DNA of 64,000 nt from Candidatus Falkowbacteria bacterium. Lineage in GTDB: Bacteria > Patescibacteriota > Patescibacteriia > CAIXNZ01. The stretch spans positions 383,779-447,778 of the forward strand of contig CAVZGV010000004.1 in assembly GCA_963774955.1 (NCBI GenBank), in the 5' to 3' direction. The notes under the pieces were generated by a model that saw nothing but the letters and a program-made list of their open reading frames with translations, was not told where the DNA came from and did not search any database. Each line of letters begins with the position of its first letter. Position 1 is the first letter of the stretch. A program made the translations under genes and the position numbers. Shown piece after piece: positions 1,116 through 25,001 of the stretch.

Positions 1116-4100
1116 ATGAGAACTTCAAAAAACAAATTTAAAATATATCTGGCTGTAGTCTCTCTGGCTGCTATGCTTATAAGTACGGCAGGCGCGTCTG
1201 CTGCCACCAGGATCGGCAGCAATATAAACTCTGCCGGTGATCTGACTGTTGACGGTGCTTTGAAATTTACTTCAGGCGCTGCTAACAATTATGTTTTAGC
1301 CAGTGATGCCAGCGGTAATGCCGCCTGGATTTCAGTGGCCACTCTTTTAGATTCTTCTCATGCCAATGTGACTACTAATGATCTGGATGAAGGCACTCTT
1401 AATTTATATTATGATTCGGCAGATGTTGAGACCAGAATTGATAATCGTAGTGGTATTGTCGGTGGTTTTGCTCCGCTTGATGCAGGGTTAAAGGTTCCAA
1501 GTTCATATTTGCCAAATTTAGTAATTACCAATGTCTATGCAGTTGCGGATATTGCTGCCAGGGACTTATTGACCGTTGAAGAAGGCGATGTGGCTGTGGT
1601 TGCTGATGCCGGTTTGTTAGAAAGCCGTTCTTATATTTATGACGGCACAGGCTGGCTGGAATTGAAAGCTCCGGTTGATTTATATTTAGCCGCCGCAAAT
1701 GATCTTTCAGATTTAGGCAATTTCGCTACTGCCAGAACTAATTTGGGTATTGGGACTACAGATATCCCCGAGTTTAACGGTTTGACTTTAAATAGTCTGA
1801 CAGCTGATTCATTTATTTATTCCGGCACGGGTGGATTACTTACCTCAACTGCTGCTCCTTTAGACGGGGAGTTGCTCATTGGTGTTGCTGGCTCGTCTCC
1901 GGTAGTGGCAACTTTAACAGGTACCACAAATCAGGTAGATGTAACCAATGGCGCAGGCTCCATAACTTTATCAACTCCACAAGATATAGATACTAGTGCA
2001 AGTCCACAATTCACAGGCTTAACTTTAAGCGGTACAACACTTTCAATTAACGGAATCGCTTATGCTTGGCCAGCTGCTGATGGCGCCTTGGGGGATGTTT
2101 TAACTACTGACGGTGCCGGCGCTTTAACCTGGACAACTGTGGCCGGTGCAGGTGAAACAAACACAGCTTCAAATGTTAATGTTGGCGGTCAGAGTTTATT
2201 TAAACAAAAAACAGGGGTAGACTTGGAATTCAGGGGCATTAATGCCGCTTCCAATAAGATAGGTATTGCGCTAGATGACCCGAATAATGAAGTAACAATT
2301 GATGTTAATGAAGCTAATTTAACTTTAGATAATCTCGGCGGAACTTTGAGTGAAACTCACGGTGGTACCAATCTGACAACTTATACTAGCGGCGATATTT
2401 TATATGCTTCGGCCGCAGATACTTTAAGTGCCTTACCAATAGGTGGTACTGATGGTTGGGTTTTAACAGTTAATACTGGTGCTCCGGTTTGGCAGGCTTT
2501 ACCTGGGGCAGGAGCAGAAACAGATCCGGTCTTTACTGGAAGCTTTACAGCCGCCGGTGATTTGTTAGTCGGTACAGGAGCAGGAACATATACTGCCGTT
2601 ACAGACGGTACTTCCGGCCAATTTTTAACTACTAACGGTTCAGGCGCTTTGAGCTGGGCAGCAGAAACAGATCCGGTGTATACAGCGTGGGATAAATCAA
2701 CCGGCATATCAATAACCGAATCACAAATATCAGATTTGCAGGCGTATCTGACATCAGAAACAGATTCTGTCTTTACTGGAAGTTTTACAGCCGCCGGTGA
2801 TTTGTTAGTCGGTACAGGAGCAGGAACATATACTGCCGTTACAGACGGTACTTCCGGCCAATTTTTAACTACTAACGGTTCAGGCGCTTTGAGCTGGGCA
2901 GCAGAAACAGATCCGGTGTATACAGCGTGGGATAAATCAACCGGCATATCAATAACCGAATCACAAATATCAGATTTGCAGGCGTATCTGACATCAGAAA
3001 CAGATTCTGTCTTTACTGGAAGTTTTACAGCCGCCGGTGATTTGTTAGTCGGTACAGGAGCAGGAACATATACTGCCGTTACAGACGGTACTTCCGGCCA
3101 ATTTTTAACTACTAACGGTTCAGGCGCTTTGAGCTGGGCAGCAGAAACAGATCCGGTGTATACAGCGTGGGATAAATCAACCGGCATATCAATAACCGAA
3201 TCACAAATATCAGATTTGCAGGCGTATCTGACATCAGAAACAGATTCTGTCTTTACTGGAAGTTTTACAGCCGCCGGTGATTTGTTAGTCGGTACAGGAG
3301 CAGGAACATATACTGCCGTTACAGACGGTACTTCCGGCCAATTTTTAACTACTAACGGTTCAGGCGCTTTGAGCTGGGCAGCAGAAACAGATCCGGTGTA
3401 TACAGCGTGGGATAAATCAACCGGCATATCAATAACCGAATCACAAATATCAGATTTGCAGGCGTATCTGACATCAGAAACAGATTCTGTCTTTACTGGA
3501 AGCTTTACAGCCGCCGGTGATTTGTTAGTCGGTACAGGAGCAGGAACATATACTGCCGTTACAGACGGTACTTCCGGCCAATTTTTAACTACTAACGGTT
3601 CAGGCGCTTTGAGCTGGGCAGCAGAAACAGATCCGGTGTATACAGCGTGGGATAAATCAACCGGCATATCAATAACCGAATCACAAATATCAGATTTGCA
3701 GGCGTATCTGACATCAGAAACAGATTCTGTCTTTACTGGAAGTTTTACAGCCGCCGGTGATTTGTTAGTCGGTACAGGAGCAGGAACATATACTGCCGTT
3801 ACAGACGGTACTTCCGGCCAATTTTTAACTACTAACGGTTCAGGCGCTTTGAGCTGGGCAGCAGAAACAGATCCGGTGTATACAGTGTGGGACAAATCAA
3901 CCGGCATATCAATAACCGAATCACAAATATCAGATTTGCAGACATATGCTCTAAGTGGAGCAAATGGAGACATTACCAGTTTAACCGGGTTGACTACTGC
4001 TCTTGGTCCGACTTATGGCGGTACTGGTTTAGCTACTTATGCTTTAGGCGATATTTTATATGCTTCAGCAGCTAATACTTTATCAGCCTTATCTTCAGGC

Positions 4101-7100
4101 GGAGCTGGTACATATTTGAAATCAGATGGTGCTGGCGGCTTAACTTGGGCTACTCCGGCTGGTAGCGGTACTATTACTGCTGTTGGTGATATAACCACAG
4201 GAGCCGCGTTTACACCTACAGCAGGCGCAGATGGCAATAATTTGTATTTTGAAGGCACAACCGGAAACGGTTTTGAAGTTAATCTGACAGCAGCAGATCC
4301 GGGATCAGATGTGATAGTGACAATCCCTGCAACAACCGGCACATTATTATTGAATACAAATAATTTATCTGACGTATCAAATACAGGAACAGCCAGGACA
4401 AATTTAGGTTTAGGCACGGGAGACAGCCCGCAATTTACAGGATTAACACTGACAAGCGATGAAACATTAAATGCACAGTCAGATTTACGGTTGGCAGATG
4501 CTGATTCATCAAATTGGGCGGCATTCCAGGCGCCAACGACAATTTCTACAAATTATACCTTGACTTTGCCGGCAGATGACGGGACAGCAGGACAATGTTT
4601 GACAACAAGCGACGGCACAGGGACATTAGCCTGGGCAGCTTGCGGAGCTGGAAGTGGAGCAGATACAGCATTATCAAATCTGGCATCAGTAGCCATTAAT
4701 ACATCATTATTACCGGGTACAACAGAATCAATAGCTTTAGGATCAGATTCATTTAACTGGTTGAATTTATACTTAGGGAATGGCGGAGTAGTTTTTGAAG
4801 GCGCAACAGGGGGAGTGGATACAAATGAGACTACCTTGGTAGTGACAGACCCGACAGCAGACCGGACAATAACCTTACCTAATGCAACAGGCACAGTATT
4901 ATTAAATACAAATAATTTATCGGATGTATCAAATACAGGAACGGCGAGAACAAGTTTAGGGTTGGGCACGGGAGATAGCCCGCAATTTACCGGATTAACA
5001 TTAACAAGCGATGAGACATTAAATGCACAGTCAGATTTACGGTTTGCAGATGCTGATTCATCAAATTGGGCAGCTTTCCAGGCGCCAACGACAATTGCAT
5101 CAAATTATACCTTGACCATGCCGGCAGATGACGGCACAGCGCTCCAGTTTTTACAGACTGACGGAAGCGGCGTTTTATCCTGGGCAACCCCAACAGTTAC
5201 ATCTGTAGCCTTTAGTGGCATAACTAATGGCATAAATACAACAGCCACTATGACGGTCGGAAGCGGAGCAACTTTAGCACCGTCAGGAACTGGTATAATA
5301 ACTGCTACCAGATATACAGGGTCAGGTTCTTCAACTAATGAAGTTGACTTAGGAACAGCAGAGGTAGCCGGTACTTTAACCGTAGTTAAGGGCGGTACGG
5401 GAATAACTGATTTTACTGGGGCGACTGGTAGTTTACCTTATTTTAATTCTGAAACTACTATGGATTTTACAAACGCCGGTACTAATAATAAATTCCTTAA
5501 AGGCGTCACAGGAGGAGCTCCAGCTTTTGCTTCAGTCGATTTGAGCAGTCCGGATGTGACAAGCACTTTGCCTATTGTTAGAGGTGGTACTGCTGCTACT
5601 ACGATAGGATCTGCTGGCAGAGTTGTATATAGTACAGGTACGGCTTATGGCACTTCCAGTGCCACAACCGAATTGGGACATATACTTATTTCAGGTACAA
5701 GTGGCACTGGTGCTCCGTCCTGGTTGGCTCAGGGTGCATCGGGGCAATTACTAGTATCAGGTGGGACAAATGTAGCACCGACTTGGACTTCCTTAGGTAG
5801 TGTACCAACTACGTCAAATAATGATGCTACTTTGCGTTCCAATGGTTCAGCTTGGGTTGAAAATACCTCCGTATTGATAAGTTCAACTGGAGGGATATCA
5901 TCCGCGAACGGTTCAGCCCTAACCATAAATTCTGGAACTACGGGTGATTTGGGGATTGGAACGGATGCAAGTATTGAAAATATAAATATAGGTACTGGTG
6001 GTGCCACTAAAACTATTATTTTTGGCAACAGTACTGGAGCAACCTCAGTTGCTATAAATACTGGTACCGGAGCATTAAATCTGGGAACGAATGCAATCGC
6101 TCATATCACAACATTGGGTTCTATAACAGGTGCCGCTTCAACCATAGTTCAATCAGGAACCGGTGACCTTAAAATTGAGACCCAGGGTACTGGCGGTTTA
6201 AAAATTGGTACTAATGCAGTAGCACAGAATATTACAATCGGCAACGGAACCGGAGCAACATCGCTTGTCTTAGAGGCTGGTACAGGCAATATCGATATTG
6301 GTAGCAATGATATTGCCAGGAGTATAAATATAGGTCAAACCTCTACAGCAGCTCAGGCTATTACCATAGGTAATGGTAATACAGGCACAGCAGTGGATAT
6401 AAAAGTCGGTACAGGAGCCTTAAATTTAGGGTCAAATGCTACAGTTCATACTACCACTTTAGGTTCAAATACTAGCACCTCAACCACTACAGTTCAATCA
6501 GGAACCGGCGGACTTAATTTAACTTCTGCAAGTACAGGTATAATAACCCTAGATTCGGGAACCACTGGTAGGATTGATATAGGAACTAATACTGGTGGCA
6601 AGACTATTAATATCGGGACAGGAGCAGCAGCTAATACCCTTAATATTGGTAATAATACTAGCGGCACAGGTACGTATATCAAAGCTGGAAACACCGGCAT
6701 TAATATATCAACTGGCGGGGCAGGGAATATAGACATATTGACTGACTCAACTGGTACTATGCACATTGATACAGGTACATCAGGTACGATAAATTTTGGA
6801 ACTGGCGATAGCGGAAAAACTATTAATATTGGTACCGGTAATGTCGCCAATACAATTAATATTGGTAATTCATCCTATGCTACTGCAATTCAGTTATATG
6901 GTACTGGCGGTGTAAAAATCGGCTCATCGAGTAGCACTGCGATTTTAAATCATTATTCTGGTACAGCTTCTCTGGATTTTGGCGCCACTGCTGCTAATAC
7001 CTGTGATGCCGCCACCATAACAGTGACTGGCGCTGCTGACGGAGATACTGTTACTCTTGGTGTACCTGCTGCTTTAGCCGGAAGCGATGCTAGTCAGAAT

Positions 7101-7217
7101 TTTTGGGGTTACGTAAGTGCTACAAATACTGTTACTGTAAAAAGATGTAATGTAACTGGTTCACCTTTAAGTGATCCTGCAGCTGCTACAGTACGCGCAG
7201 ATGTTTGGAAACACTAG
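1116..7217 (+). CDS. Giant secreted fibrous repeat protein (2033 aa), tail-fibre/adhesin-like
   Basis: Single uninterrupted ORF with an N-terminal signal peptide (cleavage likely after ASA). G/T/S/A-rich throughout. Recurrent motif G..GQ.LTT.GSGALSWA, six identical 80-aa tandem repeats, and a second diverged duplication (~aa 1070-1160 vs 1260-1345). The C-terminal region has 14-15-aa beta-helix-like repeats (TINIGTG..ANT.NIGN). Confidence 0.85.
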   Translation: MRTSKNKFKIYLAVVSLAAMLISTAGASAATRIGSNINSAGDLTVDGALKFTSGAANNYVLASDASGNAAWISVATLLDSSHANVTTNDLDEGTLNLYYDSADVETRIDNRSGIVGGFAPLDAGLKVPSSYLPNLVITNVYAVADIAARDLLTVEEGDVAVVADAGLLESRSYIYDGTGWLELKAPVDLYLAAANDLSDLGNFATARTNLGIGTTDIPEFNGLTLNSLTADSFIYSGTGGLLTSTAAPLDGELLIGVAGSSPVVATLTGTTNQVDVTNGAGSITLSTPQDIDTSASPQFTGLTLSGTTLSINGIAYAWPAADGALGDVLTTDGAGALTWTTVAGAGETNTASNVNVGGQSLFKQKTGVDLEFRGINAASNKIGIALDDPNNEVTIDVNEANLTLDNLGGTLSETHGGTNLTTYTSGDILYASAADTLSALPIGGTDGWVLTVNTGAPVWQALPGAGAETDPVFTGSFTAAGDLLVGTGAGTYTAVTDGTSGQFLTTNGSGALSWAAETDPVYTAWDKSTGISITESQISDLQAYLTSETDSVFTGSFTAAGDLLVGTGAGTYTAVTDGTSGQFLTTNGSGALSWAAETDPVYTAWDKSTGISITESQISDLQAYLTSETDSVFTGSFTAAGDLLVGTGAGTYTAVTDGTSGQFLTTNGSGALSWAAETDPVYTAWDKSTGISITESQISDLQAYLTSETDSVFTGSFTAAGDLLVGTGAGTYTAVTDGTSGQFLTTNGSGALSWAAETDPVYTAWDKSTGISITESQISDLQAYLTSETDSVFTGSFTAAGDLLVGTGAGTYTAVTDGTSGQFLTTNGSGALSWAAETDPVYTAWDKSTGISITESQISDLQAYLTSETDSVFTGSFTAAGDLLVGTGAGTYTAVTDGTSGQFLTTNGSGALSWAAETDPVYTVWDKSTGISITESQISDLQTYALSGANGDITSLTGLTTALGPTYGGTGLATYALGDILYASAANTLSALSSGGAGTYLKSDGAGGLTWATPAGSGTITAVGDITTGAAFTPTAGADGNNLYFEGTTGNGFEVNLTAADPGSDVIVTIPATTGTLLLNTNNLSDVSNTGTARTNLGLGTGDSPQFTGLTLTSDETLNAQSDLRLADADSSNWAAFQAPTTISTNYTLTLPADDGTAGQCLTTSDGTGTLAWAACGAGSGADTALSNLASVAINTSLLPGTTESIALGSDSFNWLNLYLGNGGVVFEGATGGVDTNETTLVVTDPTADRTITLPNATGTVLLNTNNLSDVSNTGTARTSLGLGTGDSPQFTGLTLTSDETLNAQSDLRFADADSSNWAAFQAPTTIASNYTLTMPADDGTALQFLQTDGSGVLSWATPTVTSVAFSGITNGINTTATMTVGSGATLAPSGTGIITATRYTGSGSSTNEVDLGTAEVAGTLTVVKGGTGITDFTGATGSLPYFNSETTMDFTNAGTNNKFLKGVTGGAPAFASVDLSSPDVTSTLPIVRGGTAATTIGSAGRVVYSTGTAYGTSSATTELGHILISGTSGTGAPSWLAQGASGQLLVSGGTNVAPTWTSLGSVPTTSNNDATLRSNGSAWVENTSVLISSTGGISSANGSALTINSGTTGDLGIGTDASIENINIGTGGATKTIIFGNSTGATSVAINTGTGALNLGTNAIAHITTLGSITGAASTIVQSGTGDLKIETQGTGGLKIGTNAVAQNITIGNGTGATSLVLEAGTGNIDIGSNDIARSINIGQTSTAAQAITIGNGNTGTAVDIKVGTGALNLGSNATVHTTTLGSNTSTSTTTVQSGTGGLNLTSASTGIITLDSGTTGRIDIGTNTGGKTINIGTGAAANTLNIGNNTSGTGTYIKAGNTGINISTGGAGNIDILTDSTGTMHIDTGTSGTINFGTGDSGKTINIGTGNVANTINIGNSSYATAIQLYGTGGVKIGSSSSTAILNHYSGTASLDFGATAANTCDAATITVTGAADGDTVTLGVPAALAGSDASQNFWGYVSATNTVTVKRCNVTGSPLSDPAAATVRADVWKH
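2515..3955 (+). repeat. 6 x 240-bp essentially identical tandem repeats inside the giant gene (each encodes 80 aa, ETDPVFTGSF...QAYLTS)
   Basis: Direct reading shows period 240, with 'gaaacagat(c/t)c(g/t)gtctttactgga' recurring at 2517, 2757, 2997, 3237, 3477 and 3717. Only synonymous or near-synonymous differences are seen in the first and last copies. Confidence 0.9.
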
Positions 7218-7244
7218 GTTAGTTAAAAGTCTAAATTATTACAG

Positions 7245-8684
7245 ATGTTAGAATCTAACTCAAATTTTATATCCAGATACTGGGTAATCGCTTTAATTTT
7301 GGTCATACCCTTAGCGGTTTTGGCGGCCAATGATTTTATATTGGATGATGTGGTTGAATTTGAACTGGATACTATTGATACTGTTCCTGTTGCGACGGTG
7401 ATTACGGCTGGTTCGGTTACGCCCGAACAGCAAGTGGTGGACATGAATGTGGAGACTAATTATATAGAAATCAGCGTATACACTGATACGGATATTACTT
7501 TTAATACCACGGTGGCCGGTCAGTATTTAAAATTTACCCCTGTTTCCAGCCCCAGTTTTACCTTGACGCCAGCATGTCCGACCACAACAGCCCGTCTGCA
7601 GGGCACAGGCGCAGCGCCGCTAACTGTTAGATTGGAAGTAACTACAGCCAATGCTTGCCTGGCCGGCATTACAGTCTCTGGTATTTCCGGCAATACTTCT
7701 GAATCCGGCAGCAGTGCAGTGTTTGCGGTTTATTTGAATACTCAGCCAACTGCTAATGTAACCATCAGTATTTCCAGCTCAGATAATTCCGAGGGCATTG
7801 CTTCTCCTGCTTCGCTGACCTTTACAAGTGCCAATTGGAATATTCCAAAGTTTATTACGGTGACCGGGGTGAATGATTTTATAGTTGATGGTAGCATTAC
7901 TTATTATATATTAACTGGTGCAGCCGTTTCTACAGATCTTATTTATAACGGTATAAATCCAACTGATGTGACCGTGGTTAATACTGATAATGACACTGGA
8001 GGCGGCGGCGGTGGTGGAGGAGGCGGCGGTGGTGGCGGCGGTGGTGGTGCTGTTATTCCCATTACACCCCCGGCAACTTTGCCAGCTGGCGTTTTTGTCG
8101 GAGATTTAATCAAACGCTCTGATATTCCGACTGTTTATTTTGTCGACGATGATTTTAAACGCCATTCATTCCCGAATAAAGAAACATATTTAAGCTGGTT
8201 TCCTGATTTTTCCAATCTCAAGATAGTTTCTGCCGAAACTCTGGCCGCAACTACTATGGGTTCAAATGTGACCCTCAGACCAGGCACTTATTTGGTTAAA
8301 GTTCAGTCAGTCCCCAAGGTTTTTGCTGTGGAACCGGCTGGTGTGATTAGATGGGTTCAGACTGAAGAGATAGCCAGAAAACTTTATGGTGATAATTGGA
8401 GTGAGCGAGTAATAGATCTAAATCCAGCCTTTTTTACCAATTACAGTGAAGGTGAGCCTATTGTTGCAGGCCAGCATCCGACCGGCAGTTTGGTTCAATG
8501 GCTAAACGGTCAAAGAGTTTACTATATTGAAAACGGAGTCAGACGTTATGTCACCTCTGAAGTTTTTATTAATAATAAATTCCAAAATATTTTTGTCTAT
8601 CGCCAGTTAACTCCTGATTTTTTCTATACCAATGGTCCTGATTATCCCATGCTGGGAATCCCAATAATGATGGACTTGAAATAA
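7245..8684 (+). CDS. Secreted/membrane-anchored protein with Ig/Calx-beta-like domain, an 18-residue poly-Gly linker and a C-terminal domain of unknown function
   Basis: N-terminal TM/signal segment. The motif ..TVTISISSSDNSEG...LTFTSANWNIPKFITVTGVNDFIVDG..YYIL is typical of adhesin Ig-like modules. The poly-Gly is encoded at ~7993-8048. It lies immediately downstream of the giant gene, so likely shares an operon. Confidence 0.7.
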   Translation: MLESNSNFISRYWVIALILVIPLAVLAANDFILDDVVEFELDTIDTVPVATVITAGSVTPEQQVVDMNVETNYIEISVYTDTDITFNTTVAGQYLKFTPVSSPSFTLTPACPTTTARLQGTGAAPLTVRLEVTTANACLAGITVSGISGNTSESGSSAVFAVYLNTQPTANVTISISSSDNSEGIASPASLTFTSANWNIPKFITVTGVNDFIVDGSITYYILTGAAVSTDLIYNGINPTDVTVVNTDNDTGGGGGGGGGGGGGGGGGAVIPITPPATLPAGVFVGDLIKRSDIPTVYFVDDDFKRHSFPNKETYLSWFPDFSNLKIVSAETLAATTMGSNVTLRPGTYLVKVQSVPKVFAVEPAGVIRWVQTEEIARKLYGDNWSERVIDLNPAFFTNYSEGEPIVAGQHPTGSLVQWLNGQRVYYIENGVRRYVTSEVFINNKFQNIFVYRQLTPDFFYTNGPDYPMLGIPIMMDLK

Positions 8685-8828: not shown

Positions 8829-9410
8829 ATGGAAAAAACCCTAGTGATTATTAAACCCGATGGCGTGCAGCGCAATTTAATCGGTGAAATAATCAAACGT
8901 TTGGAACAAAGCGGCTTGAAACTAGTAGCTTTAAAGATGATGAGTGCAGATGAAAAGACGATTGAAAAACATTATACTATTGATCCTGAATGGCTAAAAA
9001 AAGTTGGCACAAAATCTATTGAATCTTATAAAAAGAAAGGACTAACACCGCCCAATGATGATCCGGTGGCTTTGGGTAAGGAAGTTTTAAATCGGCTCAA
9101 AGTTTATATTAGTAACGGACCAGTAGTGCCTATGGTCTGGGAGGGTAATCAAGCCGTAGAAATGGTTCGTAAGATTTGTGGTAGCACGGAGCCTTTGTCA
9201 GCTCTTTTAGGTACGATTAGAGGTGATTATACCCCAGAATCTTACCAATTAGCAGATGGAGATGAGCGTGCTATCCGTAATTTGGTTCATGCCTCAGGTA
9301 CTGCTGATGAAGCGGCCGAAGAGATCGACTTGTGGTTCGATAAGCCAGAAATTATGGAATACAAATTAGTGAGAGATTCCATTATTTATGATAAAGTCTG
9401 GGATATATAA
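8829..9410 (+). CDS. ndk: Nucleoside diphosphate kinase (long form with ~50-aa insertion)
   Basis: Motifs IIKPDGVQRNLIGEII and NLVHASGTADEAAEEIDLWF. At 193 aa it is longer than the canonical ~140 aa. Confidence 0.85.
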   Translation: MEKTLVIIKPDGVQRNLIGEIIKRLEQSGLKLVALKMMSADEKTIEKHYTIDPEWLKKVGTKSIESYKKKGLTPPNDDPVALGKEVLNRLKVYISNGPVVPMVWEGNQAVEMVRKICGSTEPLSALLGTIRGDYTPESYQLADGDERAIRNLVHASGTADEAAEEIDLWFDKPEIMEYKLVRDSIIYDKVWDI

Positions 9411-9432
9411 TTTTAAAGAATCAAAGAAGATC

Positions 9433-9460
9433 TTGACTTTTTATGTCAAAGTGCTATAAT
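9433..9460 (+). promoter_or_regulatory. Sigma70-like promoter (TTGACT - 16 nt - TATAAT)
   Basis: ttgact at 9433-9438 and tataat at 9455-9460. The ATG of a 36-codon ORF starts 8 nt downstream, so the transcript is probably leaderless. Confidence 0.45.
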
Positions 9461-9468
9461 ATATTTAT

Positions 9469-9579
9469 ATGATAACCGCAAAAGCAATCCAATTTGAGAA
9501 ATTTGAACTTAACCTACAATTGTTAGGTTTATTGTTGTTAAGCTGCTTGCTCGCGGTTAAGTTTTCCATGTTGCGATAA
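9469..9579 (+). CDS. Small hydrophobic peptide (36 aa, MITAKAIQFEKFELNLQLLGLLLLSCLLAVKFSMLR), leaderless
   Basis: Short ORF between a consensus promoter and a strong terminator. One predicted TM helix. Below the length cut-off of the ORF track. Confidence 0.3.
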   Translation: MITAKAIQFEKFELNLQLLGLLLLSCLLAVKFSMLR

Positions 9580-9595
9580 ATTATATTGACATAAG

Positions 9596-9640
9596 GAAAA
9601 AACTAGCACCGCGAAGCGGCGCTAGTTTTATTTTATTTTT
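9596..9640 (+). terminator. Rho-independent terminator
   Basis: aaaaaactagcaccgcg-aa-gcggcgctagttttattttatttt. Confidence 0.55.
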
Positions 9641-9700
9641 AAGTTTAGCGAAAAAATTGGCCTTGATTAATCTGAAATCAGGGCAAGATAAGGAGGGAAA

Positions 9701-9964
9701 ATGATAAATGTTTGTACTGGTTGTTTAAGGTTAAATTCTTTAGGACAGAAAAAGTGCTTACATTGCCGTGATACCTGTCAGGCAATGGAATCACAAGACT
9801 ATGGCAGGTTTATGCTCAGAAGCCATGGAAAAAAGGGTCAAAAGGAGGAGCAAGCAGAGAATGAAGATTCAGAGGACAATATCAGTGAGTATCCGGACTT
9901 GAAGGTTTTTGAGGATTGTGCTAATCTTAACAATCCTTGGGAACTTTATCTACTCAGGCCATGA
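9701..9964 (+). CDS. Small zinc-ribbon (zinc_ribbon_2-like, C-x2-C-x10-C-x2-C) protein with acidic tail
   Basis: Consensus SD (taaggagggaaaATG). Motif CTGCLRLNSLGQKKCLHC. Paralogous to the next ORF. Confidence 0.5.
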   Translation: MINVCTGCLRLNSLGQKKCLHCRDTCQAMESQDYGRFMLRSHGKKGQKEEQAENEDSEDNISEYPDLKVFEDCANLNNPWELYLLRP

Positions 9965-9997
9965 AGGCTAAGCCATGGAAAGCAAAGGAGGGGAAAA

Positions 9998-10201
9998 ATG
10001 CTGGAAGGATCGCCGATCAAGAGGAATTTGTGTAATGAGTGCAAACGACCCAATCCCGTAGGACAAACGAAATGTACACATTGTGGCGGTGTTTGTGACC
10101 CCAAAATAGTTGGTTACTTTAAGGGGGATGAAGAGGAAACCCCTGATTTCAATGACGTCGTAACCCATTCCGATGGAACTAAAAGAATTATCGGGTTATG
10201 A
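9998..10201 (+). CDS. Small zinc-ribbon protein, paralogue of 9701..9964
   Basis: Consensus SD (aaaggaggggaaaaATG). Motif CNECKRPNPVGQTKCTHCGG with the same Cys spacing. Confidence 0.5.
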   Translation: MLEGSPIKRNLCNECKRPNPVGQTKCTHCGGVCDPKIVGYFKGDEEETPDFNDVVTHSDGTKRIIGL

Positions 10202-10323
10202 GGTTTAAGCCCTGGACCAGTAATGGTTCAGGGTTTTAAAATTTTTGCTAAAATTAGGAAAATAATTACAAATTAGGTAAAATTTACTTGACAAATTCAT
10301 TTTCATGTTTTAAGCTGAATTAT

Positions 10324-10449
10324 ATGAATTTATTAGACAAAAGCATAATTGAAGAAAATTCCGAGCTATGGCTAGCCAATATAATGGTTTTATTAGTCGT
10401 AGTCGTCTTGGGCACTGTCACAGTGGCTAGAGTTTTAAATATGTTCTAA
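10324..10449 (+). CDS. Small peptide (41 aa, MNLLDKSIIEENSELWLANIMVLLVVVVLGTVTVARVLNMF) with C-terminal TM helix
   Basis: Preceded by TTGACA at 10288-10293 and followed by a terminator. No SD, so likely leaderless. Confidence 0.3.
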   Translation: MNLLDKSIIEENSELWLANIMVLLVVVVLGTVTVARVLNMF

Positions 10450-10465
10450 ACTTACTGATATATTT

Positions 10466-10499
10466 AAAAAAGGCCACTGCTAAAACAGTGGTCTTTTTG
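10466..10499 (+). terminator. Rho-independent terminator
   Basis: aaaaaggccactg-ctaaaa-cagtggtcttttt. Confidence 0.55.
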
Positions 10500-10524
10500 A
10501 TTATAGTTTAGAGTTCTTTAAAAT

Positions 10525-10599
10525 GGGGGCGTAGCTCAGTGAAAGAGCAGCGGGCAAACATCCCGCAGGTCGTGGGTTCAATTCCCACCGCCCCTACCA
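10525..10599 (+). tRNA. tRNA gene, isotype undetermined (anticodon loop reads CAAACAT, formally anticodon AAC with A33)
   Basis: By-eye cloverleaf: acceptor GGGGGCG/CGCCCCU, D-arm GCUC-AGUGAAA-GAGC, anticodon stem GCGGG/CCCGC, T-arm GUGGG-UUCAAUU-CCCAC, encoded ACCA. The D-loop lacks G18G19 and position 33 is A, both non-canonical. Confidence 0.55.
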
Positions 10600-10626
10600 T
10601 TTTCCGAAGACAGGTTTTCATATCTT

Positions 10627-10685
10627 GTGGGTGCGAATCCGTCTCCGGCGGGCAATTGCGAGGTTCGAACCCTCGTACGCCCACT
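10627..10685 (+). other. tRNA-like fragment: 7-bp acceptor-like pairing (GUGGGUG/CGCCCAC) plus perfect T-arm (CGAGG-UUCGAAC-CCUCG), but no D or anticodon arms
   Basis: Only ~58 nt with a 25-nt middle segment. Could be a degenerate or pseudo-tRNA or a tRNA-like structural RNA. Confidence 0.25.
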
Positions 10686-10703
10686 TAACATGTTTTTTAG
10701 TGT

Positions 10704-10777
10704 CAGGGGATAGCTTAAGTAAAGCGCCAAAACTACCCTTTTGGAGACTGTTGGTTCAAATCCAGCTCCCCTGACCA
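10704..10777 (+). tRNA. tRNA gene, isotype undetermined (anticodon arm cannot form a 5-bp stem with a 7-nt loop)
   Basis: Acceptor CAGGGGA/UCCCCUG, U8A9, T-arm GUUGG-UUCAAAU-CCAGC, encoded ACCA. The anticodon region CCAAA-ACUACCCU-UUUGG gives an 8-nt loop (or a 6-bp stem with a 6-nt loop). The D-loop lacks GG. Confidence 0.5.
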
Positions 10778-10805
10778 ATTTATAACCTTAAAAGGAGGGT
10801 TACAC

Positions 10806-11078
10806 ATGCCAGCGGAAAAGGGACCAGATCATGTAAGCGTAGCGGAGTTTTTTGCCCTGGAAAGTTTTGGAGACAGGCTGGCTGACCAACTTGACCGGCT
10901 AAATACTCGGCATAGCAATTATTGCCAGGAAACAGTCGCGCTCAAGCAGTCATTGGCTAATGGCGGTCGACGCCAAGAATTGAGGCAAGCACGGTTGCAT
11001 GATTTAGAAACGCGACTTTTACCCCAGTTACAGGCACGCCTGCATTCATTGCAGGATCAAAAAATCGGGCTTTATTAA
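10806..11078 (+). CDS. Hypothetical small protein (90 aa), GC-richer, coiled-coil-like
   Basis: Consensus SD (aaaaggagggttacacATG). Local GC is about 50% against a ~34% background. Followed by a terminator. Confidence 0.5.
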   Translation: MPAEKGPDHVSVAEFFALESFGDRLADQLDRLNTRHSNYCQETVALKQSLANGGRRQELRQARLHDLETRLLPQLQARLHSLQDQKIGLY

Positions 11079-11087
11079 GGCCCAGAG

Positions 11088-11114
11088 AAAGCTCCCTTCA
11101 CCGGGAGCTTTTTA
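11088..11114 (+). terminator. Rho-independent terminator
   Basis: aaagctccc-ttcacc-gggagcttttt. Confidence 0.55.
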
Positions 11115-11411
11115 AATTAATTTGTGCTATAATATAAGTGACCAGGCAATTAGCTTATGTTCTAGGACAATCTTATTTAATGGGAGGCTCATATTTTATA
11201 GCGCCGTGGCGTTATAATGCGGCCACCCACTTGATTCGCAGCTGGAAACATCAAGCTTATTGCCTGTTCATAAAAATCAGCCCTTTGTTTGTAAAGGACT
11301 GATTTTTTATTTGAAGACAAATATCCCCAGATTTGGGCTTAAATTATAGTCTAAAGGCTGAAATTATGCTAAAATAAAGAGAGGATACTTAAGTATTTTT
11401 CTGAAATTTTT

Positions 11412-13085
11412 ATGTTGAGCAGTAAAAAATTAAAAGATATATTAATCAAGCCTGGTTATGTCAAAGAGGCTGATTTTGAAGTGGCTGCTGCTGACGCCAA
11501 AGCCAAAAAAATTAGTCTAGAACAATCATTGGTTGAAAACAATTTACTTAAGGATGAATACTTGGGCCAATTGATTGCGGATAGCCTTAAGTACCGTTTA
11601 GTAAATTTAACAAAAAAAGCAATTGTCCCCGAAGTTTTAAGATTGATTCCAGAGTTAGTAGCTAAAAAACAGCTCATCGTTGCTTTTGCCAAAGATAATG
11701 AAGGGTTACATTTGGCCATGAATGAACCGGATAATTTACAGTTACAACATTTTATTGCCAAAAACACCGGAGAAAAAATTATTACTTATTATGCAACTCC
11801 CAAGGATATACTGAAAGCAATTAGCCTGTATCATAAGGAATTAAAACAAGAATTTTCTGAAATTGTTTTAAAAAATTTAAGTGAGATTAAGGCGGATAAT
11901 AAAGAACAATTGCCGATTATTAAAATAGTAGAGTCATTAATTCAGTATGCTTATGAAAATCGAGCTTCTGATATTCATATTGAGCCTCATGATGAGGATA
12001 CACTGATTCGTTTCCGCATCGACGGCGTCTTACATGATGTTTTGGCCATACCCAAAAATTACCATGATTTGATAGTCTCCCGAGTTAAAATTATGTCTAA
12101 TTTAAGGACTGATGAGCATAAAAGCAGCCAGGACGGTAAAATCCGATTTAATCTGGCTGAAGAAAAATTAGATATACGCGTATCAATTTTACCGATTGTT
12201 GAGGGCGAGAAAATTGTGATGAGACTTTTAGCAAAAAAATTGCGTCAGTTGAATCTGGATAATTCTGGTTTAAATCCCAAGGATGTAAAAAAGGTCAAAA
12301 AAGCCATCAAAAGTCCCTGGGGCATGATATTGGCCACCGGTCCGACGGGCAGCGGCAAGACAACAACCTTATATTCAATATTAAAACTGTTAAATTCTCG
12401 AGATATTAATATTTCCACCATTGAAGATCCGGTAGAATATGATGTTGACGGTATTAATCAAATCCAGGTCGATGTGGAAACTAATTTAACTTTTGCCAAG
12501 GGGTTGCGTGCGATTTTGCGCCAAGATCCGGATGTGATCATGGTTGGTGAAATTCGTGATGAAGAAACCGCTAAAATAGCCATAAATTCAGCGATGACCG
12601 GCCATTTAGTTTTATCTACTTTGCATACCAATGATTCAGCTACCGCCTTGCCACGTCTTTTAGATATGAAGGTCAAACCATATTTGATTGCCTCTACAGT
12701 TTTAATGGTAATTGCCCAGCGTTTGGTCAGAAAAATTTGTCCGAATTGCATTGCAAGTTATAACCTGTCAGCTGAAGAATTTGGTAAGTTATTGCCCAAA
12801 GGCATGGCAGCAAAATTTATTGACGGCAAAAAGAATGTTACCCTTTATAAAGGTGAAGGCTGCAAGTTGTGTCATAAAACCGGGTATACTGAACGTCTGG
12901 GAATCTTTGAGGTTTTAGAAGTAAGCCAAACTATTCGCGATTTAATTGTGGCCAAAGCAACTAGCCAGGACATAAAAAAACAGGCAATTTCCGAGGGTAT
13001 GACAACGATGCTGGAAGACGGGATGGAAAAGGTTTTTATGGGCCAGACTACTTTGGAGGAGATTTTAAGAGCAACTAAGGAATAA
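11412..13085 (+). CDS. pilB: Type IV pilus assembly ATPase PilB (GspE family)
   Basis: Walker A GPTGSGKTTT, Asp box and His box, plus a C-terminal CxxC...CxxC tetracysteine. 557 aa. Confidence 0.9.
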   Translation: MLSSKKLKDILIKPGYVKEADFEVAAADAKAKKISLEQSLVENNLLKDEYLGQLIADSLKYRLVNLTKKAIVPEVLRLIPELVAKKQLIVAFAKDNEGLHLAMNEPDNLQLQHFIAKNTGEKIITYYATPKDILKAISLYHKELKQEFSEIVLKNLSEIKADNKEQLPIIKIVESLIQYAYENRASDIHIEPHDEDTLIRFRIDGVLHDVLAIPKNYHDLIVSRVKIMSNLRTDEHKSSQDGKIRFNLAEEKLDIRVSILPIVEGEKIVMRLLAKKLRQLNLDNSGLNPKDVKKVKKAIKSPWGMILATGPTGSGKTTTLYSILKLLNSRDINISTIEDPVEYDVDGINQIQVDVETNLTFAKGLRAILRQDPDVIMVGEIRDEETAKIAINSAMTGHLVLSTLHTNDSATALPRLLDMKVKPYLIASTVLMVIAQRLVRKICPNCIASYNLSAEEFGKLLPKGMAAKFIDGKKNVTLYKGEGCKLCHKTGYTERLGIFEVLEVSQTIRDLIVAKATSQDIKKQAISEGMTTMLEDGMEKVFMGQTTLEEILRATKE

Positions 13086-24419: not shown

Positions 24420-25001
24420 TTAGTACGTCTCGCATTTAACCTGATAAAAGGCCTTTTCATGATCGCAAGAAGGACATCTTTGTGGCGGTGTTTTGCCTTT
24501 ATGAACATAACCGCATTCACGGCAGACCCATTCGGTTTCTTCTTCTTTTTTAAAGACAGTCTCGGCTTTAACTTCTTTAAGGATTTTCAAATAGCGTTCT
24601 TCATGGTGCATTTCAGCTTTGGCGATTGAACGTAGTCGAGCGGCGATATCCTTCAAGCCTTCTTTTTCAGCTAGATCAGCAAATTCAGGGTACATGGTCG
24701 TATATTCCCAGTTTTCACCGGCAATGGCTGCTTCCAGGTTTTCAGCTGTGGTGCCATACGTAGTCGGCACTTCTGATTCAACAATTATTTTTTCTAAGTC
24801 TTTACGGTCAGCTTTTAGTTGCTTAATTAATTTAAACAGCCAGCTGGCGTGTTCACGTTCATTGTCAGCAGTGATTAAAAAGATTTCCGCAATTTGTTCA
24901 TAACCTTCTTTTTTGGCAACTTTGCTATACAGGGTATAGCGGTTTCTGGCCATTGATTCGCCGATAAAGGCTTTGGCCAGGTTTTTTATGGTTTCTTGCA
25001 T
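24420..25001 (-). CDS. rbr: Rubrerythrin (ferritin-like di-iron domain + C-terminal rubredoxin-like CxxC...CxxC)
   Basis: E..EH di-iron motifs and C-terminal CRECGYVHKG...CPSCDH. Confidence 0.85.
   Translation of the reverse strand: MQETIKNLAKAFIGESMARNRYTLYSKVAKKEGYEQIAEIFLITADNEREHASWLFKLIKQLKADRKDLEKIIVESEVPTTYGTTAENLEAAIAGENWEYTTMYPEFADLAEKEGLKDIAARLRSIAKAEMHHEERYLKILKEVKAETVFKKEEETEWVCRECGYVHKGKTPPQRCPSCDHEKAFYQVKCETY

Follow-up and report, generated by a model that had tools for sequence, protein, structure and literature searches.

A lineage-specific cluster of very small genes between ndk and pilB in Candidatus Falkowbacteria, with two tRNA-like genes of aberrant anticodon loop

Composition and inheritance of the cluster

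In the window analysed here (that is, the whole 64,000-nucleotide (nt) stretch of DNA, taken from a 455,071-bp contig of a Candidatus Falkowbacteria bacterium), the genes ndk (8829–9410; Pfam NDK, expectation value (E) 7.5e-39) and pilB (11412–13085; T2SSE, E 2.6e-130) flank a stretch, 9420–11120, that is occupied by very small genes. These are two micro-open reading frames (mORF1 and mORF2), two genes for zinc-ribbon proteins (ZnR1 and ZnR2), two tRNA-like genes (A and B) with a tRNA remnant between them, and one further open reading frame (ORF), called ORF-X (as shown in Table 1). An earlier note on the same DNA had taken the stretch for a mobile or defence-type accessory islet. To judge from the comparison with related genomes, its very small genes form a lineage-specific cluster that has been inherited, not a mobile or defence island, and A and B are conserved tRNA-shaped genes within it whose anticodon loops depart from the rules of decoding.

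Table 1. Features of the stretch between ndk and pilB, with positions in the window.
Feature	Position	Strand	Remarks
Sigma-70-type promoter of mORF1	9433..9460	+	TTGACT, 16 nt, TG-TATAAT; 11/12 consensus matches
mORF1, leaderless 36-amino-acid (aa) micro-protein MITAKAIQFEKFELNLQLLGLLLLSCLLAVKFSMLR	9469..9579	+	ORF in 8 lineages
Intrinsic terminator hairpin 3′ of mORF1	9599..9629	.	Terminator-like on either strand; conserved, one compensated pair
ZnR1, 87-aa zinc-ribbon protein with Shine–Dalgarno site	9701..9964	+	MINVCxxC...CxxC...CQ; C-terminal YPDLKVFEDC...RP
ZnR2, 67-aa paralogue of ZnR1 with Shine–Dalgarno site	9998..10201	+	
Terminator-like hairpin 3′ of ZnR2	10207..10236	+	
mORF2 promoter	10288..10316	+	TTGACA, 17 nt, TAAGCT
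mORF2, 41-aa predicted single-pass membrane micro-protein	10324..10449	+	ORF in 9 lineages
mORF2 terminator	10467..10498	+	Variable slot starts immediately 3′
tRNA-like gene A	10525..10599	+	Full cloverleaf, encoded CCA, loop CAAACAU
tRNA remnant lacking the D arm	10627..10685	+	7-bp acceptor pairing, T arm, short hairpin, no CCA
tRNA-like gene B	10704..10777	+	Cloverleaf, encoded CCA, 6-bp anticodon stem and 6-nt loop
ORF-X, 90-aa helical-hairpin protein (model) with Shine–Dalgarno site	10806..11078	+	
ORF-X terminator	11086..11113	+	Closes the variable slot
Gene for a conserved structured RNA next to the cluster, with a separate promoter (TGCTATAAT) and terminator	11125..11310	+	Outside the 9420–11120 stretch

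Relatives of the locus were found through NDK homologues (72–88% identity; labelled Uhrbacteria, Buchananbacteria, Parcubacteria or Patescibacteria) and through a metagenome scan with the mORF1 pattern, and they make up seven distinct lineages, among which L088, L090 and L091 are GCA_011046145.1, GCA_026395685.1 and GCA_001817265.1, respectively. The metagenome scan itself returned four true loci, mostly from species already sampled, and one chance match (L098). The order ndk, mORF1, ZnR1, ZnR2, mORF2 recurs in L088/L089/L095 (one species, referred to below as the L088 group), L096, L090, L091/L097 and L104/L099. In L102 the frame is the same, with a leuA-like (HMGL-like) gene replacing ZnR1 (2464–4089), and in L094 a hicAB toxin–antitoxin pair lies directly after ndk (6700–7220) and only one zinc ribbon is present; that is to say, the same intergenic neighbourhood also takes other insertions. 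Between lineages the synonymous divergence (dS) of ndk is at least 1.4 or saturated, and third-position identity is 0.45–0.53. Since the order of the core genes is shared across such saturated distances, the core cluster is old and vertically inherited, and no recent insertion. A PilB-based scan of species-representative genomes, whose closest hit was 51% identical, found no cluster and no tRNA upstream of pilB. The stretch in the window would be the local copy of a clade-specific cluster that follows ndk and in most cases precedes the type IV pilus operon, and its core consists of two leaderless genes for single-pass membrane micro-proteins and two Shine–Dalgarno-led zinc-ribbon proteins.

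In the two micro-ORFs the ATG stands 8 nt (mORF1) and 7 nt (mORF2) past the −10 box, so that both mRNAs should be leaderless or nearly so. The mORF1 promoter is conserved in L088, L090, L091, L102 and L104, and the promoter-to-ATG layout of mORF2 is common to L088, L091, L102 and L104, with a 20-nt leader in L090. Each of the micro-peptides (36 and 41 aa) has a single hydrophobic stretch. The mORF1 frame is open in eight lineages, with a length of 108, 111 or 114 nt, the position of the stop codon is kept, and all indels are multiples of 3; its pairwise differences are distributed over the three codon positions as 125/41/187, with a nonsynonymous divergence (dN) of about 0.03–0.17 against a dS of 0.2–1.0. 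The mORF2 frame is open in nine lineages (461/361/702 by codon position; dN below dS throughout) and is the most widely kept member of the cluster, being the only one after ndk in the more distant lineages L092, L101 and L103. Judged by these substitution patterns, mORF1 and mORF2 are real genes under purifying selection, and the pattern fits conserved membrane micro-proteins. A pure non-coding RNA as the explanation of mORF1 is ruled out by its codon-position pattern and its frame-preserving indels. The segments TTAAGCTGC and GCGGTTAAGTTTTC of mORF1 are invariant in seven lineages, synonymous sites included, and its 5′ end AUAACCGC is able to pair with GCGGUUA close to the 3′ end of the ORF; no covariation was found for this pairing, and an additional constraint at the RNA level is possible.

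The two leaderless micro-ORFs with a promoter and a terminator each, as described in the earlier note, were borne out by the checks of promoter, ATG spacing and hairpin, which lends support to the small genes as probable autonomous transcription units; and the small ORFs, whose lack of conservation the note had named among its refuting conditions, are conserved in the lineages just named. Its further suggestion, type I toxins or bacteriocins, gained no positive evidence. Like the type I toxin peptides Hok, Fst and TisB, the products of the micro-ORFs are tiny, hydrophobic and single-pass, and each of their genes has a promoter and a terminator to itself. Unlike type I toxin–antitoxin systems, however, they are single-copy, syntenic across genera and under purifying selection, and a crude consensus scan detected no consensus-like antisense promoter overlapping either micro-ORF.

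ZnR1 and ZnR2 are indeed paralogues (35% identity, E 2e-7), as had been proposed. Their zinc-ribbon matches in Pfam are sub-threshold only, and profiles of the two proteins, run against PDB sequences, gave nothing but generic zinc-ribbon similarity (eL40, rubredoxin; E ≥ 0.001). With 14 cluster representatives among 1.84 billion proteins, the ZnR1 family can be regarded as clade-specific. The second zinc-ribbon slot holds in relatives a protein of the CxxC...CPxCGG type (L088 1847–2026; L090 11098–11283; L091 7268–7456) that is unrelated to ZnR2, which indicates that this slot has been replaced; elsewhere in the window this type has a weak match only (24456–24566, minus strand, E 0.006).

ZnR1, ZnR2 and ORF-X are all preceded by AGGAGG-type Shine–Dalgarno sites. 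Such sites are absent from 50 of the 62 long ORFs of the window, so the contrast drawn earlier with the rest of the genome stands for these three genes; it is not exclusive to them, since 9 further ORFs have such sites, and a gene run at about 52–57.5 kb in the window carries strong ones. Translation initiation in this genome seems, from the distribution of these sites, to be mostly independent of Shine–Dalgarno sequences. As for the supposed 'GC-richer patch', the difference in guanine-plus-cytosine (GC) content is weak (0.409 in the stretch against 0.389 in the window), the rise is due to the tRNA-like array (0.53) and ORF-X (0.49), and large neighbouring genes reach 0.43–0.44, so that the composition is ordinary.

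The mobile or defence-type islet with micro-ORFs acting as type I toxins or bacteriocins has to be weighed at this point. In its favour are the small hydrophobic peptides with promoters and terminators of their own, the variation of the tRNA-like/ORF-X slot between lineages, the hicAB pair inserted in the same region in L094, and the fact that tRNA genes are classic integration sites (PMC3399842). However, the core is syntenic in seven lineages; the comparison of synteny, proposed in the earlier note to see whether the islet is an insertion, did not find mORF1, ZnR1, ZnR2 and mORF2 absent from the site in relatives. Between ndk and pilB no ORF encodes an integrase, a transposase or a recombinase, no flanking direct repeats were found beyond short ones at chance level, and GC content is 0.41 against 0.39. 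In PADLOC, PHROGs, Pfam and NCBIfam there is no significant match for any of the small proteins; viral contigs scanned with anticodon-arm or body patterns of A and B gave only seven chance matches, which are not tRNAs, and a phage BLAST of the tRNA region gave generic similarity of 75–80% to assorted phage tRNAs, without an assignment. The micro-proteins, moreover, are single-copy and selectively maintained, with no overlapping antisense promoter found. For the core, the mobile or defence reading may be said to be largely refuted already, and taken as a whole it is very improbable. What is left of the accessory islet is its variable part: A, B and ORF-X are present or absent from lineage to lineage, whereas the core is inherited at a fixed site.

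The tRNA-like genes A and B

The slot that begins after the mORF2 terminator contains A, the remnant, B and ORF-X in the window; A, B and ORF-X in L102; B and ORF-X in the L088 group and L096; A only in L091; and ORF-X only in L094, while in L090 and L104 it is empty. Both A and B are called by ARAGORN and by Rfam, where they score 59.8 and 50.0 bits (gathering score 29), which leaves no doubt of their tRNA shape. In each, the minimum-free-energy structure is a cloverleaf whose acceptor stem has 7 bp and whose T stem has 5 bp, with a TPsiC-type loop, and both are non-canonical in the anticodon loop, in agreement with the earlier note. That note had left room for ordinary tRNAs with standard anticodons; ARAGORN gives A33 and the anticodon AAC for A, and for B a 'tRNA-???' with a 2-nt anticodon, which its mitochondrial mode forces to Gly(acc) with a mismatched stem. 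As a control, U33 and a purine at position 37 are present in each of the nine ordinary tRNAs of the analysed DNA, and the two tRNA-Pro genes of the window are fully canonical; in the window neither A nor B has the canonical elongator loop (7 nt, U33, purine 37), nor does either have G18G19.

In A, the anticodon arm is normally shaped, and its loop is CAAACAU, that is, A33 stands in place of U33, followed by A34 as the first base of the anticodon AAC. The D loop is AGUGAAA in the window and AGNGAAA across lineages, without G18G19, and pair 1:72 is never Watson–Crick (G·U, G·U and G×A in the three lineages). The orthologues, L091 7735–7809 and L102 4680–4754, are identical in 67–70 of 75 bases (89–93%), with the loop CAAACAU invariant and the anticodon AAC and the encoded CCA kept in all three lineages. 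Two pairs are compensated, 5:68 from G-C to A-U and 27:43 from G-C to C-G, and 96.8% of the cells of the stems are paired, against 43–59% in slid registers. The intergenic DNA on the flanks of A is unalignable between lineages, and ndk synonymous sites are saturated. With its sequence conserved and its stems compensated where neutral sites are saturated, A is, on this comparative evidence, functional. In L091 it is solitary, with its own terminator and no ORF following.

In B, the anticodon arm CCAAAA-CUACCC-UUUUGG can be drawn with a 6-bp stem and a 6-nt loop, or with a 5-bp stem and an 8-nt loop. Position 37 is C, a pyrimidine; the acceptor has C1-G72 and A73; and the D loop of 5 nt (AAGUA) lacks G18G19 in the window, GG being present in the B of L088 and L102. 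Orthologues occur in L088, L089, L095, L096 and L102, and four distinct sequences of B could be compared, against three of A. In the stems, 97.7% of the cells are paired (27–58% in slid registers), compensatory double changes are seen at four pairs (2:71, 6:67, 7:66 and, in the anticodon stem, the sixth pair), and the covariation score was reached by only 4 of 500 shuffles. The anticodon loop has 7, 8 or 9 nt and reads ACUACCCU in the window, UUACAAA in L102 and GUUUAUCCC in both L088 and L096; its sequence is not conserved, indels are confined to loops, and the 'anticodon' of the three lineages reads ac, UAU and ACA. In B, as the alignment indicates, the stems are kept by compensation and the loop is drifting. 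The acceptor of the L088 B is identical to that of the tRNA-Pro(GGG) of the window.

At the level of sequence comparison, A and B are both shown to be under purifying selection as folded RNAs, in which the acceptor stem, the T arm and the CCA end are kept; and the same comparison shows that their anticodon loops break the decoding rules, A being without U33 and B having the wrong loop size and a pyrimidine at 37.

The fragment between A and B has a GUGGGUG/CGCCCAC acceptor, a T arm with the loop UUCGAAC, and a short hairpin with a UCC-containing loop. An acceptor-like pairing and the T arm were already described in the earlier note and are confirmed, the acceptor pairing being perfect over 7 bp; the hairpin comes in addition. 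ARAGORN sees the fragment at a relaxed threshold only, in a poorer register and as a degenerate 'Gly(tcc)', Rfam has no match for it at E ≤ 10, and no counterpart was found elsewhere, L102 having only the trace ggcaggttcg. Most simply, it would be a decayed tRNA remnant. A weak 'tmRNA_permuted' match at 10572–10645 (21 bits) was ascribed to a T arm and ACCA, and ARAGORN finds no transfer-messenger RNA.

One may extend this decay to all the tRNA-like genes and regard them as functionless pseudogenes left by an old tRNA cluster in a shrinking genome. The remnant itself (no D arm, no CCA, no Rfam match, no L102 counterpart), the two stem mismatches in the L102 B and the empty slot in L090 and L104 would all fit such a history. 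But it does not account for the identity of 89–93% that A keeps between lineages in spite of saturated synonymous sites and unalignable flanks, for the compensatory changes that keep the stems of both A and B paired, or for the restriction of the indels of B to its loops, so that pseudogenes are a highly unlikely explanation of A and B.

Decoding and other possible functions

The main rival interpretation is that A is a working tRNA-Val(AAC), maybe deaminated to IAC, which decodes GUU/GUC despite A33, and that B is a fast-evolving second isoacceptor. The complete cloverleaves with their Rfam scores and the conservation of the anticodon AAC in three lineages speak for it. In E. coli, the identity elements of valyl-tRNA synthetase (ValRS) are mainly A35, C36 and A73; A carries A35, C36 and usually A73, in keeping with this set. 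In addition, GUU is the commonest Val codon in this genome (0.43), and in L102 the loop of B is regular, with U33 and A37. On the other hand, A33 has to be set against the near-universal U33, which all nine control tRNAs possess, and A34 is exceptional in bacteria except in tRNA-Arg and tRNA-Leu (PMC8266599, PMC11066159). A is absent from the locus in the L088 group, L090 and L104, where GUU use is equally high (0.39–0.51), which is weak evidence, and no signal was found between Val codon usage and the presence of A at the locus. For B, the 'anticodon' differs from lineage to lineage and the loop varies in length; if B were a decoder, an anticodon varying on a fixed acceptor identity would lead to mistranslation. 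Taking both sides together, ordinary decoding by A and B is considered unlikely. For comparison, the supplement of the Patescibacteria tRNA-intron paper gives 2–3 Val tRNAs in ABY1 genomes, as counts per amino acid without anticodons.

Other known types of tRNA were compared with A. It resembles bacterial initiator tRNA in the three consecutive G-C pairs at the bottom of the anticodon stem and in the non-Watson–Crick pair 1:72, and the arm flanks CGGGC...CCCGAAGGUCG match the initiator pattern. It differs in having CAU at 36–38 and not at 34–36, and C-G instead of A-U at 11:24; the anticodon AAC and the pair 11:24 rule out an initiator tRNA. It was also observed that the loop CAAACAU (10555–10561) is complementary to AUGUUUG in codons 3–5 of ZnR1 (9709–9715; the conserved MINVC), and this complementarity is probably due to chance, since A and ZnR1 do not consistently occur together (L102 has A and no ZnR1).

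Like tRNA-Pyl and mitochondrial tRNA-Ser(UCN) (PMC7609411), B has an anticodon stem of 6 bp and a D loop of only 5–6 nt, and the sixth pair of its stem is backed by one compensatory change. Unlike tRNA-Pyl, it has a variable loop of 5 rather than 3 nt, a connector of two nt (UA) rather than one from the acceptor stem to the D stem, a TPsiC loop that is canonical, and the loop CUACCC with no CUA anticodon. Enlarged anticodon loops are characteristic of +1 frameshift suppressors such as sufD, and with a 5-bp stem the loop of B would be enlarged as well, to 8 nt in the window copy and to 9 nt in that of L088; yeast mitochondrial tRNA-Thr(UAG), too, has an 8-nt anticodon loop (PMC7609411). In B, unlike these, the loop is unconserved and no four-base anticodon follows U33. 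Since the sixth stem pair covaries, 6 bp and a short loop are favoured, and a +1 frameshift suppressor is ruled out by that covarying pair and the unconserved loop, the latter also arguing against enlarged-loop decoders in general.

Non-proteinogenic tRNA-Gly of staphylococci serves the synthesis of peptidoglycan bridges, lacks G18G19 and has a canonical anticodon loop, which is read by glycyl-tRNA synthetase. Family A is similar to it in the missing G18G19 and different in the anticodon loop, and the search for a Fem-type transferase in the neighbourhood of the cluster was negative. Pseudo-tRNAs that take no part in translation have been described before, tRNA-Other of Bacillus cereus being an example (PMC3399842). 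Like A and B, tRNA-Other is encoded by a chromosomal tRNA-shaped gene without conserved tRNA features, at a variable junction. It does not work in translation, and A and B would act outside decoding as well. Its target is a T-box and its anticodon loop is a normal one for Trp, while A and B have aberrant loops (A33 in one, 6 nt in the other); and A and B differ further in being two families in tandem, with no T-box or pathogenicity island and with no sequence homology shown to tRNA-Other.

The reading preferred here, tentatively and somewhat short of an even chance, is that A and B are functional tRNA-like RNAs acting outside ribosomal decoding. Their transcription would be due to read-through of mORF2 or to a weak promoter, and RNase P and 3′ trimming would mature them in the manner of tRNAs. 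In the mature form they would then serve outside ordinary decoding, as tRNA mimics. The invariant loop of A would be read by a specific partner, and with the ValRS elements carried by A its valylation without decoding is plausible. As the loop of B is free to change, B would work through its body and acceptor end; that is, it would act via acceptor, T arm and body, and might be either a mimic or an element in the processing of the ORF-X message, with which it would be co-transcribed. The co-transcription would also make ORF-X the likeliest protein partner or co-regulated product of B.

Several points weigh against this preference. With only three distinct sequences of A and four of B, the covariation statistics are weak, and the covariation score of A was reached by 66 of 500 shuffles. 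U33 is not strictly needed for decoding; as it is no absolute requirement, A could act as a tRNA-Val(AAC or IAC) that reads GUU. In L102 the loop of B, UUACAAA, is of normal length (7 nt) and includes U33 and A37, and this B also has the two stem mismatches already mentioned. The view of the tRNA genes, and with it that of any canonical tRNA-Val gene, covers the window out of the 455-kb genome. Finally, the partnership of B and ORF-X is circumstantial, since ORF-X occurs without B in L094 and A occurs without ORF-X in L091.

B, and perhaps A, can also be explained as RNA-processing punctuation, in which RNase P and 3′ processing cut the read-through transcript of mORF2 and so make or stabilise the ORF-X mRNA. 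B lies 28 nt upstream of ORF-X in the window and 28–57 nt upstream of its start in all three lineages with B, and neither a terminator nor a clear promoter was found between them; the arrangement resembles co-transcripts of tRNA and mRNA and the tRNA punctuation model of mitochondria, and a conserved body with an unconserved loop is what B displays. Nevertheless, ORF-X stands without B in L094, A is followed in L091 by a terminator and no ORF, the invariant loop of A is left unexplained, and an encoded CCA is not required for processing alone. Punctuation as the main role is therefore rated as decidedly improbable.

A bolder form of the preferred non-decoding role, which is doubtful to a similar degree, is that A represents a new class, in Patescibacteria, of dedicated aminoacylated non-ribosomal tRNA, derived from tRNA-Val, and that B and ORF-X are a second pair of mimic and protein. 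In such a carrier, A33, A34 and the missing G18G19 would keep A off the ribosome, while the ValRS elements and the CCA are retained, and A would supply its amino acid to some non-translational process, for instance the synthesis of the cell envelope or of small peptides. The searched literature contained no description of family A or family B.

ORF-X belongs to a small, fast-evolving family with a conserved C-terminal motif, RL-DLE-RL-P-LQ; single-sequence and profile searches found homologues only in L102, the L088 group, L096 and L094, all in the same clade. Its model is a hairpin of two long helices (predicted local distance difference test (pLDDT) of 80), and a fold search with this model gave no match at E < 0.48. 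The likeness to the helical tRNA-binding arms of seryl-tRNA synthetase (SerRS) and FemX is generic to helical hairpins and was not accepted as evidence. In the L088 group the ORF-X homologue (L088 2459–2846, L089 2455–2842, and L095) has one extra G, caaGGGGaaaaaaa against caaGGGaaaaaaa in L096 (3221–3607), and three independent assemblies concur in it. Owing to the extra G, the Shine–Dalgarno-led start and the conserved body are in different frames, and the L096 protein would be restored by a shift of +1. By its sequence, the ORF-X of the L088 lineage would be either a fixed pseudogene or a recoding site; a still bolder variant of the carrier idea would let the neighbouring B, as a tRNA with an enlarged loop, read across this frameshift.

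Implications and neighbouring features

Patescibacteria have the smallest free-standing bacterial genomes, so that an RNA gene kept across genera probably does something. A, at 89–93% identity, would be either a rare natural exception to the U33 rule or a dedicated tRNA of a new, non-translational sort; very little is known of the cell envelope and the small proteins of this phylum. The calls 'tRNA-Val(aac)' and 'tRNA-???' in metagenome-assembled genomes of this clade are shown by the cluster to denote real conserved genes and not assembly noise. The cluster also yields two well-supported leaderless micro-proteins and a clade-specific zinc-ribbon family, of a kind usually missed by annotation pipelines.

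Upstream of ndk, a 479-aa ORF (7245–8684), without a Pfam domain, contains an uninterrupted run of 17 glycines. On the other flank, a structured RNA of about 130–170 nt lies just upstream of the pilB promoter on the plus strand (last row of Table 1), with an extended −10 promoter, and it is present in the window, L102, L090, L088 and L096. Rfam has no match for it even at E ≤ 10. Its closing helix covaries (CAGGCAAUUAGC/GCUUAUUGCCUG against CCUUGUAAAUAGC/GCUAUUUGCAAGG), and it could represent a small RNA, not described before, that is connected with the pilus operon.

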